Positions 23,276-59,175 of a stretch of 64,000 nt of DNA are shown here, piece after piece. The stretch lies in contig CAVSRT010000013.1 in assembly GCA_963730435.1 (NCBI GenBank), positions 11,536 through 75,535 of the forward strand, read 5' to 3'. The notes below the pieces were generated by a model that had not been told where the DNA came from, searched no databases, and saw only the letters and a list, made by a program, of their open reading frames with translations. A program made the translations under genes and the position numbers. Origin of the DNA: an uncultured Actinomycetota bacterium (GTDB lineage: Bacteria; Actinomycetota; Actinomycetes; Streptosporangiales; Streptosporangiaceae). Position 1 is the stretch's first letter. Every line of letters starts with the position of its first letter.

Positions 23276-23289
23276 AAGAACATGTTCTA
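23276..23289. promoter_or_regulatory. perfect palindrome AGAACATGTTCT (within AAGAACATGTTCTA) in the divergent promoter region; TetR/KstR-type operator-like (TnnAACnnGTTnnA)
   Basis: Read directly from the sequence: ...caaacaagaacatgttctactcc... between the NTF2 gene (minus) and the LLM oxidoreductase (plus). Confidence 0.4.
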
Positions 23290-23359
23290 CTCCACCTGGT
23301 CAACCTGCACCCGCGACATGACCGGGCGACCAAGGCCCGATGGCTCAGCCGGAGGTACC

Positions 23360-24241
23360 GTGCGCTTCTGCTACGCCGAGTCGATGACCGACCCGTCCTT
23401 CTACTCGCCACTCGCCCGCGCGGCCGAGGAGGCAGGCTATGACTCGATGGTGATCCCGGACAGCATCTGCTACCCGGCGCAGTCCGACAGCGTCTACCCC
23501 TTCAACCCCGATGGCACCCGCGAGTTCCTGGAGGACAAGCCGTTCCTCGAGCCGTTCTCGCTGATCCCGTTCCTCGGCGCCGTCACGAGTCGTCTGCGGT
23601 TCATCACGTTCGTGCTCAAGCTGCCGGTCCGCCACCCGGTCCTGGTCGCCAAGCAGGCCATGTCGACCGCGGTCCTGACGGGCAACAGGCTCGTCCTCGG
23701 CGTCGGGACTAGCCCGTGGCGGGAGGACTACGACGTGCTCGGCGTGCCCTGGGCGCGGCGCGGCCAGCGGATGGACGAGGCACTCGCGATCGTGCGCGGC
23801 CTGACATCGGGCGGCTACTTCGAGTACCACGGCGAGATCTTCGACGTCCCCGCGATCAAGATGTCGCCGGTGCCGACACAGCCGGTGCCGGTCCTGGTCG
23901 GCGGCCACGGGGAGGCCGCCCTGCGCCGGGCCGCGTCGGCCGGCGACGGCTGGCTGCACGGCGGCGGCAACCCGGCTGACCTGCCCGGCCTGCTCGCCCG
24001 GCTCGCGCAGCTGCGCACCGAGTGCGGGACCGCCGACCGGCCGTTCGAGGTCCACGTCATTTCGCTGGACGCCTACTCGGTGGACGGCATCCGCCGGCTG
24101 GAAGACAGCGGCGTGACGGAGGTCATCGTCGGATTCCGCTGGCCGTACCACGTCGGCCCCGACACCGAGGACCTGCAGCCCAAGCTCGACAAGCTGCGCA
24201 AGTACGCCGACGACGTCATCGCGAAGACGGCTTCTCCATGA
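23360..24241 (+). CDS. LLM class F420-dependent oxidoreductase (luciferase-like monooxygenase family)
   Basis: GTG start (VRFCYAE..) 6 nt after GGAGG. TIM-barrel LLM pattern ..SMVIPDS...RLRFITFVLKLPVRHP...VGGHGEAALRRAA... Confidence 0.8.
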   Translation: MRFCYAESMTDPSFYSPLARAAEEAGYDSMVIPDSICYPAQSDSVYPFNPDGTREFLEDKPFLEPFSLIPFLGAVTSRLRFITFVLKLPVRHPVLVAKQAMSTAVLTGNRLVLGVGTSPWREDYDVLGVPWARRGQRMDEALAIVRGLTSGGYFEYHGEIFDVPAIKMSPVPTQPVPVLVGGHGEAALRRAASAGDGWLHGGGNPADLPGLLARLAQLRTECGTADRPFEVHVISLDAYSVDGIRRLEDSGVTEVIVGFRWPYHVGPDTEDLQPKLDKLRKYADDVIAKTASP

Positions 24242-24295
24242 TCCCGAAGACTTTGCGTCCGTGGCACACGCAAACTCTCCTGGATCATGGAAAAG
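24239..24295 (+). promoter_or_regulatory. copy A of a conserved about 55-nt nested-palindrome element (CATGATCCCGAAGACTTTGCGTCCGTGGCACACGCAAACTCTCCTGGATCATGG) immediately upstream of the cupin gene
   Basis: Outer arms CATGATCC/GGATCATG, inner arms TTTGCGT/ACGCAAA. A second copy lies at about 58008-58065. Confidence 0.5.
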
Positions 24296-24302
24296 TCGCA
24301 TC

Positions 24303-24695
24303 ATGGACGCCAAGCCAGTCAACCTGCACGCAGCCCTGAGCTCCTTCGACGAGATCTACAGCCCGCGAATCGTCACCCGGATGAACGACTACGACGTCCG
24401 GATCGCCCACGCCAAGGGCGAGCACGTCTGGCACGCGCACGCCGACACCGACGAGTTTTTCCTGGTCATCGACGGCCAGTTCGACATCGCGCTGCGTGAC
24501 GCCGACGGCGCCGAGCACGCGGTCAGCCTCCGCGAGGGCGACGTCTTCGTCGTCCCGAAGGGCACCGAGCACAAGCCGTCCTCCCCTGGCGGCTCGATCC
24601 TCATGTTCGAGCCGTCGCAGACGCTGTCCACCGGCGACTGGCACGAGGGCGAGATCCCCGACCACGTGCACAGCACGACCGGCCAGGAGCTCTAG
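24303..24695 (+). CDS. cupin domain-containing protein
   Basis: Cupin motifs G(X)5HXH(X)3,4E(X)6G-like: GEHVWHAHADTDEFFLVIDG and GDVFVVPKGTEHKP. Confidence 0.7.
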   Translation: MDAKPVNLHAALSSFDEIYSPRIVTRMNDYDVRIAHAKGEHVWHAHADTDEFFLVIDGQFDIALRDADGAEHAVSLREGDVFVVPKGTEHKPSSPGGSILMFEPSQTLSTGDWHEGEIPDHVHSTTGQEL

Positions 24696-24721: not shown

Positions 24722-25960
24722 CTAGCCGGCCTCCCGCAGCTCCCCTGCCAGCTCGCTGACCAGCTCACGCGGCAGGCCGTGCGTGTCGTGGAGGAACGCG
24801 TAGTCGTCCTCGCTCAGCTCGCCCGCCGGGTACAGCCGCTGCAGCAGCGACCGGCCGCGCGTCAGCAGTTCGCCGAACTTGCGCTCTTCCGTGAGCAGCA
24901 CCTCGCGCACGATGGAGGGCTCGACCGACAGGCCAAATCGCGAAGCCGTGTCCAGGACGAGCTCCGGCGGCAGCTCGCCCAGCGTCGGCTCACCGCGACC
25001 GGGCGCGCCGCGACCGGGCTCACCGCGACCGGGCTCACCGCGACCGGGCTCACCGTCCCACAACGATGTCAGCGCCCGCCGCAGCAGCCGCCGCAGCACG
25101 TATCCGCGCCCCGTGTTCGACGGCCGCACTCCATCGCCGATGATGACGATCGAGGATCGCAGGTGATCGGTGATGATTCGCAGCGACCGCTCGTCCGGCT
25201 GCCACAAGCCCGGCAGCACCGAGAGCCACGGCGCGAACAGGTCCGTGTCGAACACCGACGACACTCCCTGCGACACCATGAGCAGCCGCTCGAGGCCCAT
25301 GCCGGTGTCGACGCTCGGCTGTGACAGCGGGGACAGGCTCCCGTCGGGATGGCGCTCGTATCGCATCGTGACGTGGTTCCATAGCTCGAGCCACCGCGAA
25401 TCTGTGGCCGGGCTCCCTTGCGGCGGGCCCGTTCCCGTCCAGACGAAGATCTCCGAATCGGGCCCGCACGGTCCCGTCGGCCCGTTGGACCACCAGTTAT
25501 CGTCGGCGCCGAGCAGCTCGACCGGCAGCCCGAGGTCCGACCAGGTCGACAGCGCCGCGGTATCCGGTCCGACCTGGTCGTCTCCGGCGAACGCCGTCGC
25601 ATACAGCAGCCCCGGCTTCAGCCCGAAGTGGTCGCAGATCAGCTCGAGTCCCCACCGCAGGCTCTGCGGGCCGCCGTAATCACCCAGCGACCACGAGCCG
25701 AGCATCTGGAAGACGGTCAGGTGCGAGCTGTCGCCGACCTCCTCCAGGTCGGTAGTCCGCAGGCAGCGCTGGATCCCGGTCAGCCGCCGCCCAAGCGGAT
25801 GCGGCTCGCCCGCGAGATAGGGCGTCAGCGGATGCATGCCCGAGGTCGTGTAGAGGACCGGATCGCCAGGGCGCGGCAGGAGCGAGCTGCCGCTGATCTG
25901 GTGGTGTCCCCGGCTTCGGAAGAACTCAGTGAACGTTGAGATCGTCTGGCTGGTGTTCAT
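24722..25960 (-). CDS. alanine--tRNA ligase-like protein: aminoacylation plus tRNA-recognition domains only (no editing or C-Ala domains), with in-frame (GEPGR)4 insertion
   Basis: Class II motifs are conserved: FxxFF..GH, TVFQMLGSWSLGDYGG (motif 2 region), LWNHVTMRYERHPDGSLSPLSQPSVDTGMGLERL (motif 3/Ala pocket), VRPSNTGRGYVLRRLLRRA. The ORF ends at a position equivalent to about residue 450-460 of E. coli AlaRS. Confidence 0.75.
   Translation of the reverse strand: MNTSQTISTFTEFFRSRGHHQISGSSLLPRPGDPVLYTTSGMHPLTPYLAGEPHPLGRRLTGIQRCLRTTDLEEVGDSSHLTVFQMLGSWSLGDYGGPQSLRWGLELICDHFGLKPGLLYATAFAGDDQVGPDTAALSTWSDLGLPVELLGADDNWWSNGPTGPCGPDSEIFVWTGTGPPQGSPATDSRWLELWNHVTMRYERHPDGSLSPLSQPSVDTGMGLERLLMVSQGVSSVFDTDLFAPWLSVLPGLWQPDERSLRIITDHLRSSIVIIGDGVRPSNTGRGYVLRRLLRRALTSLWDGEPGRGEPGRGEPGRGAPGRGEPTLGELPPELVLDTASRFGLSVEPSIVREVLLTEERKFGELLTRGRSLLQRLYPAGELSEDDYAFLHDTHGLPRELVSELAGELREAG
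24955..25045. repeat. 15-bp tandem repeat (gctcaccgcgaccgg)n inside the AlaRS-like gene, encoding GEPGRGEPGRGEPGRGAPGRGEP
   Basis: Direct reading of the plus strand 24960-25040. Confidence 0.8.
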
Positions 25961-31318: not shown

Positions 31319-31360
31319 TCCTGATCAGGTAGCAACTTCCTGATCAGATAGCAAGGCAAG

Positions 31361-31405
31361 GCCGCGCGCCTCGGGTCAACGCCCGAGGCGCGCGGCTTTT
31401 GCGTT
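31361..31405. terminator. intrinsic (rho-independent) terminator, bidirectional position between convergent genes
   Basis: GCCGCGCGCCTCGGG-TCAAC-GCCCGAGGCGCGCGGC followed by TTTTGCGTT. It is preceded by the direct repeat CTGATCAGRTAGCAA x2. Confidence 0.55.
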
Positions 31406-56017: not shown

Positions 56018-57949
56018 CTAGCGCGGATCGCCGGGGCTGACCGCCGCGCAGACCGCGCGCAGCAGGTCGATGTCTGGCAGTTCGTCGAGCAGGACCGGGC
56101 GGCCGCTGTCGTCGCAGAGCGGCAGCCGCCAGTTGGGGTACTCGTCGCGCGTGCCGGGGATGTTCTGCGTCCGCCGGTCGCCGACGGCATCGGCCAGCGA
56201 CACCCCGAGGAGCAACGCCGGCGTCTTGCGCAGGTAGCCATAGAGAGCGACCGTGTACTCGGCGGGGTCGGGCTCATGATCGGCGGCCAGTAGTCCTTCC
56301 GCGACAAGGGCCGCGCGCCAGCGAGCCAACATCGCGTCGGAATCAGCCCGTTCCTGGTCCTCAGAGGTTTTCAGCAATCCCAGCCGCGCTCGCACGGTCA
56401 CCTGCTCGCCGGTGACGAAGCCGAAGACCGGTGGCACGTCGTGAGTACCGACGGTCGCCATGCAGCCACGTCGCCACTGCGCCGGTTGCAGCGGCGTCGT
56501 GCCATCGCCGGTGTGCGCGAACCAGAGCATCATCGTGCCGAGGATGCCGTTTTCGGCCATGTAGTCGCGAACCCAAGGGTCGACCGTGCCGAGGTCCTCG
56601 CCGATGGCGACGGCATCAGCGCGGGCTGCCGCGGCAACGAGCGCCCCAACCGATGACTGGTGGCGGTAGTAGACATAGGCGCCACGGTCGGGCAGCTGAC
56701 CGGATGGCACCCACCACAGCCGCGTCAGGCCCATGAAGTGATCGACGCGCAGTCCGCCGCCGTGCCGCAGTGCCGCGGCGAACATCTCGGCAAGCGGGCG
56801 GTAGCCGGCCTCGGCGAGGGCGCGCGGGTTCCACGGCGGCTGTCCCCAGTCCTGGCCGAGCTGGTTGAAACCATCGGGCGGCGCACCGACGCTGAATCCC
56901 GCGGCCAGGAACCGGCCGTACGCCCAGGCGTCGGCGCCGCCAGGGTGCGAGCCCACAGCAAGATCGTGGATGATGCCGTGCGCCATGCCCGCCGCCTTGG
57001 CCGCGTCCTCTGCCATCGCGAGCTGCTCGTCCGCGTGCCACTGCAGCCAGGCGTGGAACGCGGCGGCAGCGCTCAGCTTGGTATCGCCGGCCACGACCTC
57101 CGCGGCCCGGCCCGGATCAGTTAGCTCCTCGGGCCAGCTCCGCGAGTCCGGACCGTGTGCCTCCGCCAGGGCGCACCAGACGGACCAGCGCTCAAGGTCA
57201 CGGCCGCGTTCGGCCCGGAAGTCCTCATAGGCGCGCTGCCGGGACTCGGTCAGCGGGACCTTGCTGATCAGCTCGAGGGCCGCGCGCTTGGCCGTCCAGA
57301 CCGCGTCCCTGTCGATGAGGTCGGCGGTATGGTTCGCGGCGCGCAGCGGGGCGGCGAGCAGGTCGATCGCGCGCTTGTCCTGCGCCGGGAGCGCACCGTA
57401 CTCCAGGATGTCCTCCACCCTGAGATATAGCGGGCTAGTGAACAAGCGCGTCATCGGCAGGTACGGCGAGGGGCTGACCGGCGGCAGCGGCTCGGCCGCG
57501 TGCAGCGGGTTGATGAGCACGAACCCGGCGCCCAGCTCGGCCGCGCTCCACCTCGCCAGGCTTGCCAGGTCATGCAGGTCGCCGTGGCCCCAGGAGTCCC
57601 TCGACCGGATCGAGTACAGCTGAACGGCGAAGCCCCACTGCCGCTCGGCAGGCAAGCTGAGGCGCGGCGGACTTTTGTGCTGAGCGTCGGGCCCGGACTT
57701 TCCAGGCGCGGATTGGCCGGGCGCCGACTGGCCGGGCCCGGACTGGCCGGGCCCGGATCGGCTGGCCTGGTATCCGCGGTCCGCCGGTCCGTCGAGCTCC
57801 GCGCCATCCAGCGGGGGCGTCTGCTCGAGAACCTCGAGAATCGCCGCCAGAGTCTCGGACGGCACCTCCACATGCTGGCCGCGCCAGTTGTAGTAATCCG
57901 TCGCAATTCCGGCATCTCGCGCGGACTCGATGAGCTCTGGGTCGGTCAC
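56018..57949 (-). CDS. malQ: 4-alpha-glucanotransferase (amylomaltase, GH77) with an in-frame (GQSGP)n insertion
   Basis: GH77 catalytic regions (..HFMGLTRLWWVP.., ..IGEDLGTV.., ..GTHD..). The N-terminus MTDPELIESARDAGIATDYYNWRGQHVEV matches the amylomaltase start, so the GTG 31 codons inside the track ORF is chosen. Confidence 0.85.
   Translation of the reverse strand: MTDPELIESARDAGIATDYYNWRGQHVEVPSETLAAILEVLEQTPPLDGAELDGPADRGYQASRSGPGQSGPGQSAPGQSAPGKSGPDAQHKSPPRLSLPAERQWGFAVQLYSIRSRDSWGHGDLHDLASLARWSAAELGAGFVLINPLHAAEPLPPVSPSPYLPMTRLFTSPLYLRVEDILEYGALPAQDKRAIDLLAAPLRAANHTADLIDRDAVWTAKRAALELISKVPLTESRQRAYEDFRAERGRDLERWSVWCALAEAHGPDSRSWPEELTDPGRAAEVVAGDTKLSAAAAFHAWLQWHADEQLAMAEDAAKAAGMAHGIIHDLAVGSHPGGADAWAYGRFLAAGFSVGAPPDGFNQLGQDWGQPPWNPRALAEAGYRPLAEMFAAALRHGGGLRVDHFMGLTRLWWVPSGQLPDRGAYVYYRHQSSVGALVAAAARADAVAIGEDLGTVDPWVRDYMAENGILGTMMLWFAHTGDGTTPLQPAQWRRGCMATVGTHDVPPVFGFVTGEQVTVRARLGLLKTSEDQERADSDAMLARWRAALVAEGLLAADHEPDPAEYTVALYGYLRKTPALLLGVSLADAVGDRRTQNIPGTRDEYPNWRLPLCDDSGRPVLLDELPDIDLLRAVCAAVSPGDPR
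57655..57790. repeat. 15-bp tandem repeat (GGCCGGGCCCGGACT)n inside malQ, encoding SGPGQSGPGQSAPGQSAPGKSGP
   Basis: Direct reading of the plus strand 57660-57790. Confidence 0.75.
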
Positions 57950-58007
57950 ACAGTGATGATTGACCCGCTGGCCATCACTTAATCGGGCCGGCCCACCCTC
58001 CGCATCA

Positions 58008-58065
58008 TGATCCTGAAGACTTTGCGTGCGCCACGGACGCAAACGCTACGTCCTGAGGTGCGGAG
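58008..58065 (+). promoter_or_regulatory. copy B of the about 55-nt nested-palindrome element (CATGATCCTGAAGACTTTGCGTGCGCCACGGACGCAAACGCTACGTCCTGAGGTG) in the malQ/DUF559 divergent region
   Basis: Shares CATGATCCYGAAGACTTTGCGT...ACGCAAAC with copy A at 24239-24295. The central 9 nt are the reverse complement of copy A, and the outer arms co-vary. Confidence 0.5.
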
Positions 58066-58071
58066 CCCGAT

Positions 58072-59082
58072 TTGTCAGACCTTACGGGCACGCTACGTGC
58101 CATGGCTGAGCAGTTATCCGACGAATTACGCGACCTGGCCGAGCAGCAGCGCGGCATTTTGACCAGCCAGCAGCTCAGGCGCGCCGGCGTATCCAGGAAC
58201 ACGATCAGCGCGAAACTTCGGCTGGGCCGCTGGCAGCGGATGCACCACGGTGTCTACGCAACCTTCACCGGGGAACCAGGCAGGCTAGCCGTCTTGTGGG
58301 CCGCAGCGCTGAGCGCTGGTCCGGGCGCCGTGCTCAGCCATCAGACGGCCGCGGAGTTAGCGGGACTGAGTGCAAAGCCGAGCGAGCTCATTCACATCAC
58401 TGTTCCGAGTCACCGGCGCGTGCGCCGGACGCTGGGCATCGTCATCCACCTCTCGGCCAGGGCTCTCGAAGCCAGGCATCCGGCTAAGCTGCCGCCGCAG
58501 ACTCGCATCGAGGAGACTGTGCTGGACCTGGTCGACGGCGCTCGCACCATCGACGTAGCGGGTGCGTGGCTCACTCGCGGGCTCGGCAGCCGACTGACGA
58601 CGCAGGCCAAATTACGTCAGGCCCTGGAGCTGCGAGCCAGGATTCGCTGGCGGTCAGAGCTGACCGAACTGCTGACTCCGGATGCAGCTGGATTGCACTC
58701 CATCCTGGAGCGGCGATATCAGCGCGACGTCGAGCGACCGCATGGGCTGCCGGGGGCGGCGCGCCAGGTCCAGTTTCGCAACGGCGACCACAACGAGTAC
58801 CGCGATGTTCTGTACGAGGCCTATCTGACGGCGGTCGAGCTCGACGGAGATGCTACGCACGCCGGGGACAGTCGCTGGTGGGATATTCGGCGCGACAATG
58901 CGGCGGCTGCGACCGGAATCGTAACCATGCGATACGGCTGGTTCGACGTCACCCAAAAGCCATGCCTGGTCGCGGCACAGGTCGCACGGGTACTCGCCGA
59001 GCGCGGATTCGCTGGAGCACGTCCTTGCTCGGCTGGCTGTCCCGTCGGGGAGGTCAGCCAGCAGCGTCGGCCGCCCGCATAG
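58072..59082 (+). CDS. DUF559 (PD-(D/E)xK-like) domain protein with AbiEi_4-like N-terminal wHTH
   Basis: The N-terminus QQRGILTSQQLRRAGVSRNTISAKLRLGRWQRMHHGVYA is typical of the AbiEi/DUF559 family. C-terminal motifs ..DVLYE..VELDG..H. The real start is possibly ATG 10 codons in. Confidence 0.55.
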   Translation: MSDLTGTLRAMAEQLSDELRDLAEQQRGILTSQQLRRAGVSRNTISAKLRLGRWQRMHHGVYATFTGEPGRLAVLWAAALSAGPGAVLSHQTAAELAGLSAKPSELIHITVPSHRRVRRTLGIVIHLSARALEARHPAKLPPQTRIEETVLDLVDGARTIDVAGAWLTRGLGSRLTTQAKLRQALELRARIRWRSELTELLTPDAAGLHSILERRYQRDVERPHGLPGAARQVQFRNGDHNEYRDVLYEAYLTAVELDGDATHAGDSRWWDIRRDNAAAATGIVTMRYGWFDVTQKPCLVAAQVARVLAERGFAGARPCSAGCPVGEVSQQRRPPA

Positions 59083-59175
59083 CCGAATCTGCGTCGCCCT
59101 CGACGGAATCTGAGTTGCCCCTGGGCCCGAATGGTGCGCCAGGCTCGGCCGGTGACCCAGCGGCGCAGCTCCAGC

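Follow-up and report, generated by a model that had tools for sequence, protein, structure and literature searches.

Among the closest described counterparts of the element treated here are the operators of AbiEi-fold proteins. In experiments, AbiEi recognises two inverted repeats of 23 bp with 3 bp between them; for Rv2827c there are four repeats of 23 bp, spaced by 13 bp (PMC7319586). The element itself is an intergenic palindrome, present as copies A and B in a stretch of 64,000 nucleotides (nt), the window, from an uncultured Actinomycetota bacterium of the family Streptosporangiaceae (assembly GCA_963730435.1, contig CAVSRT010000013.1, positions 11,536 to 75,535, forward strand). Copy A is genuine. 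It belongs to a family of intergenic palindromes of about 60 bases, not described before, found in soil Actinomycetota. The family is new within a known kind, that of short interspersed bacterial palindromes or operator-type inverted repeats. It is read, with a rough probability of 45%, as a candidate DNA-level binding site of an AbiEi-nuclease protein, dispersed in the manner of repetitive extragenic palindromic (REP) sequences or miniature inverted-repeat transposable elements (MITEs). The features concerned are:

24228-24298: copy A, the full palindrome of 71 nt; left arm 24228-24258, centre 24259-24267, right arm 24268-24298 (repeat search, folding, covariance model).
24252-24274: core of copy A, TTTGCGT, then CCGTGGCAC, then ACGCAAA (pattern search).
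57997-58067: copy B, of the B-type; left arm CATGATCCTGAAGAC 58006-58020, core 58021-58043, right flank CGCTACGTCCTGAGG 58044-58058 (covariance model, alignments).
58102-59082, plus strand: gene of an AbiEi-fold protein of 326 aa, with a winged helix, an AbiEi C-domain and a Vsr/DUF559-like nuclease domain; downstream of copy B.

Copy A is the longest inverted repeat of the window. Its arms of 31 nt, 84% complementary by inverted-repeat search, surround a centre of 9 nt; strong pairing spans 24236-24290, and the covariance-model score is 64.3 bits. An earlier interpretation of the letters of this DNA, here called the sequence-only reading, had quoted a string that is present at 24237-24290, and the outer 8-bp and inner 7-bp arms it described do exist inside the longer palindrome. 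The long hairpin it envisaged is also possible: the single-strand fold reaches -25.4 kcal/mol on the plus strand (z = -4.9 against shuffles) and -34.0 kcal/mol on the minus strand (z = -6.6), the plus strand, common to both flanking genes, being the worse folder. The pattern TTTGCGT-N9-ACGCAAA has exactly two matches in the window (24252 and 58021) against 0.05 expected, and two matches are obtained in 0 of 100 shuffles; the second copy reported from the sequence is thereby borne out.

Copy B scores 60.1 bits. It differs from copy A at one of the first 22 nt (C versus T, position 9), where complete identity had been asserted. The inversion of the centre stands in substance and not as an exact one: the 9-nt centre of copy B is the reverse complement of that of copy A at 8 of 9 positions (GTGCCACGG versus GCGCCACGG). 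The right flank of copy B is not homologous to the right arm of copy A. It is conserved and non-palindromic in alignments with the loci L152, L119, L125 and L139, and recurs as an unpaired asymmetric variant at these four other loci, so the supposed compensatory changes in the outer arms, GATCC/GGATC versus CCTGAAGAC/GTCCTGAGG, had been taken from non-homologous positions. Copy B possesses a short outer inverted repeat, CTCCGCA/TGCGGAG. As a whole it folds no better than shuffles (z = -0.7 and -1.6).

Further copies are found by genome-wide search with the core pattern. A pattern scan of one genome per species, a metagenome scan and a covariance model built from 31 copies yield at least about 40 distinct copies in high-GC Actinomycetota genomes and soil metagenomes, the copy numbers being lower bounds. 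Hosts are uncultured Actinomycetota metagenome-assembled genomes (MAGs), two Streptosporangiaceae MAGs, soil and peat metagenomes, and Solirubrobacterales including Svornostia abyssi; the copies of the Solirubrobacterales have different, GC-rich outer arms. The MAG MFD03399.bin.1.15 carries copies at no fewer than five loci, and another MAG carries four copies. The relatives compared are MAG assemblies of the ENA. No match is observed with plasmids and phages (BLAST) or with viral contigs (pattern scan), and a phage or plasmid origin is rejected on this ground. The literature on the motif, on actinobacterial REP sequences and REP-associated tyrosine transposases (RAYTs), on AbiEi with DUF559, and on Streptomyces palindromic repeats and MITEs yielded no description of the palindrome family. 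Resemblances of parts of the element, of its outer ends to parS (GTTTCA...TGAAAC) and of CTCTTCG to ISL3, were dropped as coincidental.

The family consensus is (T)CATGATCnCGAAGAS-TTTGCGT-N9-ACGCAAA-STCTTCGnGATCATG(A), with arms of 22-31 nt around the 9-nt centre. The inner heptamers TTTGCGT/ACGCAAA are almost invariant from Actinomycetes to Thermoleophilia, while the outer stems vary. The centre varies as well and occurs in both orientations, at orthologous loci too. Outer arms differ between loci and are complementary inside each locus, as in GATCACGAAGAC/GTCTTCGTGATC, GATCGCGAAGAG/CTCTTCGCGATC and GATCGTGGTGAC/GCCACCACGATC. Pairing usually extends by two further positions into the 'loop' (AC...GT or GC...GC), so that 5 bases are unpaired. 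Additional half-sites at a fixed period of 18 nt are present in L075, L088, L100, L123, L124 and L150. A different perfect palindrome, ATCGTGGTGAGCTGGCAGCAA-TA-TTGCTGCCAGCTCACCACGAT, is observed at L012 (2525-2574); its outer arm GATCGTGGTGA is common to the copies L068 and L080 and its core is another one, which suggests a possible wider superfamily with exchangeable cores.

Covariation is genuine across the family. In the alignment of 31 copies, the share of cells that pair is 71.9%; it falls to 34-43% once the partners are slid by 1-3 columns; 24 of the 33 pairs are changed on both sides, and the observed covariation score is reached by 0 of 500 shuffles. The site-B palindrome of L153 is perfect with a core changed on both sides (TTTGCAT...ATGCAAA), and the diverged site-A palindrome of L156 and L157 likewise has a core altered on both sides (CTGGCGT...ACGCCAG). 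Both sites have orthologous copies in related genomes. The earlier argument for selection on structure is thus correct in that the similarity is not due to chance and palindromy is kept; the changes between copies A and B on which it was built are not real. Covariation, moreover, does not separate selection from neutral homogenisation of one arm by the other at the DNA level, which could produce the same pattern. Mismatches are about equally G.T (13) and A.C (10); there is no wobble excess, and as a test for RNA-level selection the counts are uninformative.

The palindromes show a suggestive link to genes for AbiEi-nuclease proteins. The 326-aa protein has the invariant residues D235, E246-x-D248-G and H253, and at least 1,978 database proteins match it at E < 1e-5 among 8,000 candidates scored. 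In plasmids, tblastn gives one weak Mycobacterium match only. No AbiEii (DUF1814) toxin gene follows the AbiEi-like gene, the next open reading frame (ORF) of the window being convergent. In relatives, the gene that follows the AbiEi-like gene directly is a DUF4037 gene and not DUF1814 (L152 11166-12263, L154 11335-12453), and comparison of 59083-59175 with L152 and L154 gives no tblastn match to DUF4037 in the window, which implies a deletion. Short tandem repeats with a period of about 14-26 nt lie directly 3' of the AbiEi-like genes of L152 (10990-11150), L153 (10970-11060) and L158 (10990-11190); they are absent in the window.

The setting of copy B comprises two further features:

56018-57949, minus strand: 4-alpha-glucanotransferase gene (malQ, GH77) (ORF list; Glyco_hydro_77 in syntenic relatives).
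58073-58094, plus strand: PafBC-type promoter-like motif TGTCAG-N10-CACGCT, 7 nt before the ATG (matched by eye).

malQ diverges from the AbiEi-like gene; judged against L154, it starts with a GTG about 50 nt away from copy B. Within malQ, in-frame tandem repeats of 15 nt (about 57688-57756) encode the low-complexity peptide SGPGQSGPGQSAPGQS. The synteny of site B (pepN, malQ, the AbiEi-like gene, penicillin amidase and others) is kept in L152, L153, L154, L163, L131, L123 and L150. The arrangement of malQ and the AbiEi-like gene diverging from a palindrome is kept in L152, L153, L163, L131, L123 and L150 at a protein identity of 62-91%. A missing right arm of copy B was sought downstream of the AbiEi gene and not found; insertion of the gene into a palindrome at site B is rejected for this reason.

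The promoter-like motif starts 29 nt after the core of copy B, and the TTTGTCAGAC box starts 27 nt after it. The same layout recurs in L152, L153, L154, L028, L123 and L150, and the distance from palindrome to TTGTCrGAC box is 27 nt in five malQ-site orthologues (the window, L152, L153, L123 and L150). The PafBC promoter consensus is tGTCgg(N10)tA(N3)T (PMC8635444). The upstream motif tGTCrg-N10-cAnnnT-N7-ATG fits this consensus as matched by eye, and its spacing fits a leaderless transcript. From consensus and spacing together, the AbiEi-nuclease gene may be damage-inducible through the RecA-independent PafBC response. A small palindrome, GGCACGCTACGTGCC (58087-58101), overlaps the promoter-like region.

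The linkage extends beyond the malQ site. A family palindrome lies upstream of a 54%-identical AbiEi homologue at a different locus (L028); in L044, from a Solirubrobacterales MAG, a palindrome precedes a 33%-identical homologue by 27 nt. Palindromes occur on both sides of AbiEi-nuclease homologues in L034 (Svornostia) and L163. The homologue of L034 (966-1925, Svornostia abyssi) seems frameshifted in its C-terminal half and runs without a stop into the downstream ABC-F frame; the gene may have decayed to a pseudogene, or the assembly may be at fault. Upstream palindromes with different cores are also carried by L158 and L161, paralogues at an M48 peptidase/UvrD-like locus that were selected on the protein only: CATGATCAGGTAGCG-TTTGTCA-N9-TGACAAG-..GATCATG in L158 and TAGGTTTTGACGG-N7-CCGTCAAAACCTA in L161. 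Different cores at paralogues are as expected of cognate pairs of operator and protein.

The palindrome is a candidate double-stranded DNA site of the linked protein on four grounds: arms about 22 nt long around a short spacer, extra half-sites that recur every 18 nt in several copies, cores specific to each paralogue, and the deep conservation of the heptamer. The heptamer keeps its sequence while the outer stems change, which argues for sequence-specific recognition and not for structure alone. Of the two functions entertained by the sequence-only reading, a protein-binding palindrome fits best with the AbiEi linkage and the operator layout; a 5'-UTR RNA has no specific support. Binding and regulation, and the agent that would mobilise the copies, are inferred. 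Copy B would be the anchor of the family, at a fixed distance upstream of a conserved chromosomal AbiEi-nuclease gene. Two protomers of the protein would bind the two arms, of about 22-28 nt, as AbiEi and Rv2827c do on pairs of repeats, and autoregulation at site B would result. Other copies, including copy A, would be duplicates of this binding site that reached further intergenic positions in a REP/MITE-like manner. Complementarity of the arms would be kept at the DNA level by symmetric recognition together with intrastrand template switching or cruciform-mediated events, and flips of the central loop would be a product of the same arm-maintaining processes.

Several observations weigh against this reading. 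Most copies (more than 25) are orphans away from an AbiEi gene. Many copies abut the stop codon of a gene, a position commoner for REP-like sequences or 3'-end hairpins than for operators; the neighbour-gene classification is heuristic and noisy (shadow ORFs in high-GC DNA) and is used for this trend only. The covariance model finds no extra copies, either within the window or across about 200 kb of unbiased, protein-selected flanks, and the density of the family seems low on that account. In L154 the site-B palindrome has decayed and the gene is still there. The centre of the palindrome is about 80 nt upstream of the start codon and off the putative promoter. Stem pairing persists at positions of no use to a protein dimer, the two loop-closing pairs among them; this suggests that a hairpin or cruciform is itself important or that neutral homogenisation acts on the arms. 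Part of the gene association is biased, since six gene-linked loci were found via the motif; selected by protein are only L152-L154 and L158-L163.

Copy A occupies the junction of two co-directional genes:

23282-24241, plus strand: ORF of an F420-dependent oxidoreductase of the luciferase-like monooxygenase (LLM) class (TIGR03619 5.8e-55, Bac_luciferase 9.6e-41); likely true start about 23384.
24303-24695, plus strand: gene of a Cupin_2 protein of 130 aa (Pfam Cupin_2 3.7e-10; 100%-identical 130-aa database protein P0121).

The stop codon TGA of the LLM ORF (24239-24241) falls inside the left arm of copy A (CCATGATCC), in agreement with the link between element and stop codon drawn earlier. 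The start of the cupin gene at 24303 is fixed by homologues 130 aa long; 12 nt, not 8 nt, separate it from the strongly paired segment of copy A. A GGAAAAG stretch 9-15 nt before this ATG overlaps with the right arm. No AbiEi gene is near copy A, which stands in the LLM/cupin gap and not in an AbiEi promoter region. Just 5' of copy A, the LLM coding sequence (24205-24220) reads GCGAAGACGG, like the CGAAGAC arm motif of the element (24243-24251); the likeness could reflect microhomology where the element inserted, or be coincidental.

The window, L137 and L156/157 have a filled site A; in L155 the site is empty. In L137 the LLM protein is 92% identical to that of the window, arms and core differ at 2 of 46 nt and the centre at 4 of 9, with a DNA identity of 89% over the whole region. 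In L155 the cupin is 91% identical, and the LLM ORF ends ...KTH*, followed by 7 nt and the cupin ATG; where the site is filled, the LLM frame continues into the element and terminates at the element's TGA. The filled and empty versions show copy A to be an inserted or lost orphan copy. Comparison with the empty site of L155 reveals no target-site duplication at copy A. Under the binding-site reading, insertion would have replaced the original LLM stop and filled the LLM-cupin junction, and copy A could sequester the weak cupin ribosome-binding region or be occupied by the AbiEi-nuclease protein.

Copies are related to one another by copying. The B-type subfamily has the asymmetric right flank CGCTACATCCTGAGC, found again at the unrelated loci L119, L125 and L139; the same non-palindromic flank at unrelated loci argues for copying and against convergence. 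The orphan B-type copy of L119 (1107-1214, against L152 9873-9966) has about 40 nt more of left flank in common with site B, which indicates a duplicated unit of about 85 nt, larger than the palindrome. Copies inside one genome have genome-specific arms and loops in common. The orthologous loci L025b and L107 have the same arms and centres of opposite orientation (the centres agree at 7 of 9 positions once one is flipped and at 3 of 9 as they stand), so a centre inversion like that between copies A and B also happens in place. Loop flips are typical of DNA hairpins and arise via template switching or recombination between arms.

These data bear on a second explanation, a selfish, non-autonomous mobile palindrome, MITE-like or REP-like and devoid of a cellular role, spread by a transposase or by recombination, in which the copy at the AbiEi-like gene would be one old insertion. 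Filled and empty versions of site A, identical asymmetric flanks at unrelated loci and the likeness of copies within a genome accord with it, as do a unit made of two inverted repeats, the many copies that fill short intergenic gaps beside stop codons, and the decay of the site-B copy in L154. It is nevertheless considered rather unlikely. No target-site duplication is seen at site A, no transposase or longer element with these ends is present in about 800 kb of related loci, and the density is low. Selfish spread also leaves unexplained that the site-B copy is kept with a fixed promoter spacing of 27 nt across about 35% protein divergence, that unrelated paralogues of the AbiEi gene have an upstream palindrome too, and that the heptamer is kept across two classes.

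A transcribed RNA hairpin, intercistronic or at a 3' end, is improbable. It would stabilise the upstream mRNA, be cut by RNase III, terminate transcription without a U-tract or mask the ribosome-binding site of the downstream (cupin) gene. The strong predicted fold (-25 to -34 kcal/mol), the covarying pairs, the many copies between co-directional genes or a few nt from a stop codon, and the overlap of the site-A right arm with GGAAAAG speak for such a hairpin. Against this, the strand transcribed together with LLM and cupin folds less well than its complement, wobble excess is absent, and what is kept is the sequence of the heptamer and not pairing alone. The element is symmetric, equally palindromic on both strands and found in either orientation. 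Rfam 15 gives no match at gathering thresholds over the window, so the scan for a structured RNA is negative, and lax thresholds at the locus return only spurious miRNA matches (E > 2). Consensus scans detect no terminator-like or promoter-consensus site at either copy; the sequence after the arms is A-rich or mixed, with no U-tract. Copy B and the orthologous copies occupy a divergent promoter region, copy B folds no better than shuffles, and a single hairpin leaves the direct repeats of half-sites at 18-nt spacing unexplained.

A bolder extension is put forward as a doubtful one. The palindromes and the gene for the AbiEi protein with Vsr/DUF559 nuclease might form a partnership like that of REP and RAYT on a different enzyme. 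A damage-inducible winged-helix nuclease, expressed from a PafBC promoter, would have the TTTGCGT-N9-ACGCAAA hairpin or cruciform as its target. By nicking or processing this structure it would both preserve the repeats and spread them, or would resolve those at which replication stalls. If true, the very large uncharacterised actinobacterial family of 'AbiEi antitoxin-like' DUF559 proteins gains a role outside toxin-antitoxin systems. A merely accidental likeness between two intergenic palindromes, for which nothing speaks except the shortness of the common core, is refuted to near certainty by two core matches against 0.05 expected, by dozens of related copies with common arms elsewhere and by orthologous copies of both sites in relatives.

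The element and the linked protein family have a wider bearing. AbiEi_4/Vsr-like nuclease proteins are annotated as antitoxins by default, yet no toxin partner is present here, and the conserved, paralogue-specific upstream palindrome is a concrete candidate DNA target for them. Dispersed copies provide a simple system for how binding sites multiply round a chromosome and how long palindromes stay perfect, with arm-to-arm correction and loop flipping visible at orthologous loci. The element supplies the LLM stop, and gene callers extend the malQ and AbiEi ORFs into it.

Other repeats of the window are noted. The AlaX-like (tRNA-synt_2c) gene, minus strand, which is unrelated to malQ, has in-frame 15-nt tandem repeats at about 24860-24930 that encode the low-complexity peptide GEPGRGEPGRGEPGRG. 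A strong hairpin at 31353-31404, with GC-rich arms of 18 nt (94% complementary) followed by TTTT, looks terminator-like. Another strong hairpin, at 639-674, has perfect arms of 15 nt, AAACCGGTCGGGCCC/GGGCCCGACCGGTTT.

Compared with known systems, the family resembles the Mycobacterium mycobacterial interspersed repetitive units (MIRUs), actinobacterial intercistronic repeats overlapping flanking stop and start codons, in that copy A supplies the LLM TGA. Unlike the family, MIRUs consist of direct repeats of 46-100 bp in tandem and are not palindromic. With MITEs made of terminal inverted repeats only (Correia, Nezha-type) it shares two inverted arms, filled/empty polymorphism and subfamilies with private changes. 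It differs from them by its smaller size (55-70 bp) and, at the loci examined, by the absence of a target-site duplication and of a parent insertion sequence with its ends. REP sequences and bacterial interspersed mosaic elements (BIMEs) associated with RAYTs are likewise short intergenic palindromes dispersed round the chromosome, often beside gene 3' ends, and have a counterpart here in a single, vertically inherited DNA-binding gene of nuclease type beside copies of the element, on both sides in L034 and L163. The apparent copy number of the family is low, in contrast to REP/BIME. Its arms start (T)CATGATC... and not with a GTAG (or CGTC) 5' tetranucleotide, and its conserved part is the inner stem TTTGCGT. 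The linked protein is an AbiEi with Vsr-like nuclease and not a Y1 (IS200/IS605-like) transposase; no transposase is found among the called genes of the family loci examined. From AbiEi/Rv2827c operators, those of type IV AbiE toxin-antitoxin promoters, the family is distinguished by the lack of a following AbiEii (DUF1814) gene, and hence of a bicistronic abiEi-abiEii unit, by the extra Vsr/DUF559-like nuclease domain of the linked protein, by the many orphan copies away from the gene and by a promoter that looks PafBC-type; binding is predicted here from the layout. The position in the promoter region is shared by copy B and its relatives and not by copy A. Like these operators, the family has inverted repeats in pairs, each about 23 bp long and set a short distance apart, just upstream of a winged-helix gene whose AbiEi fold is confirmed here, and the repeats can be arrayed in multiples (PMC7319586).

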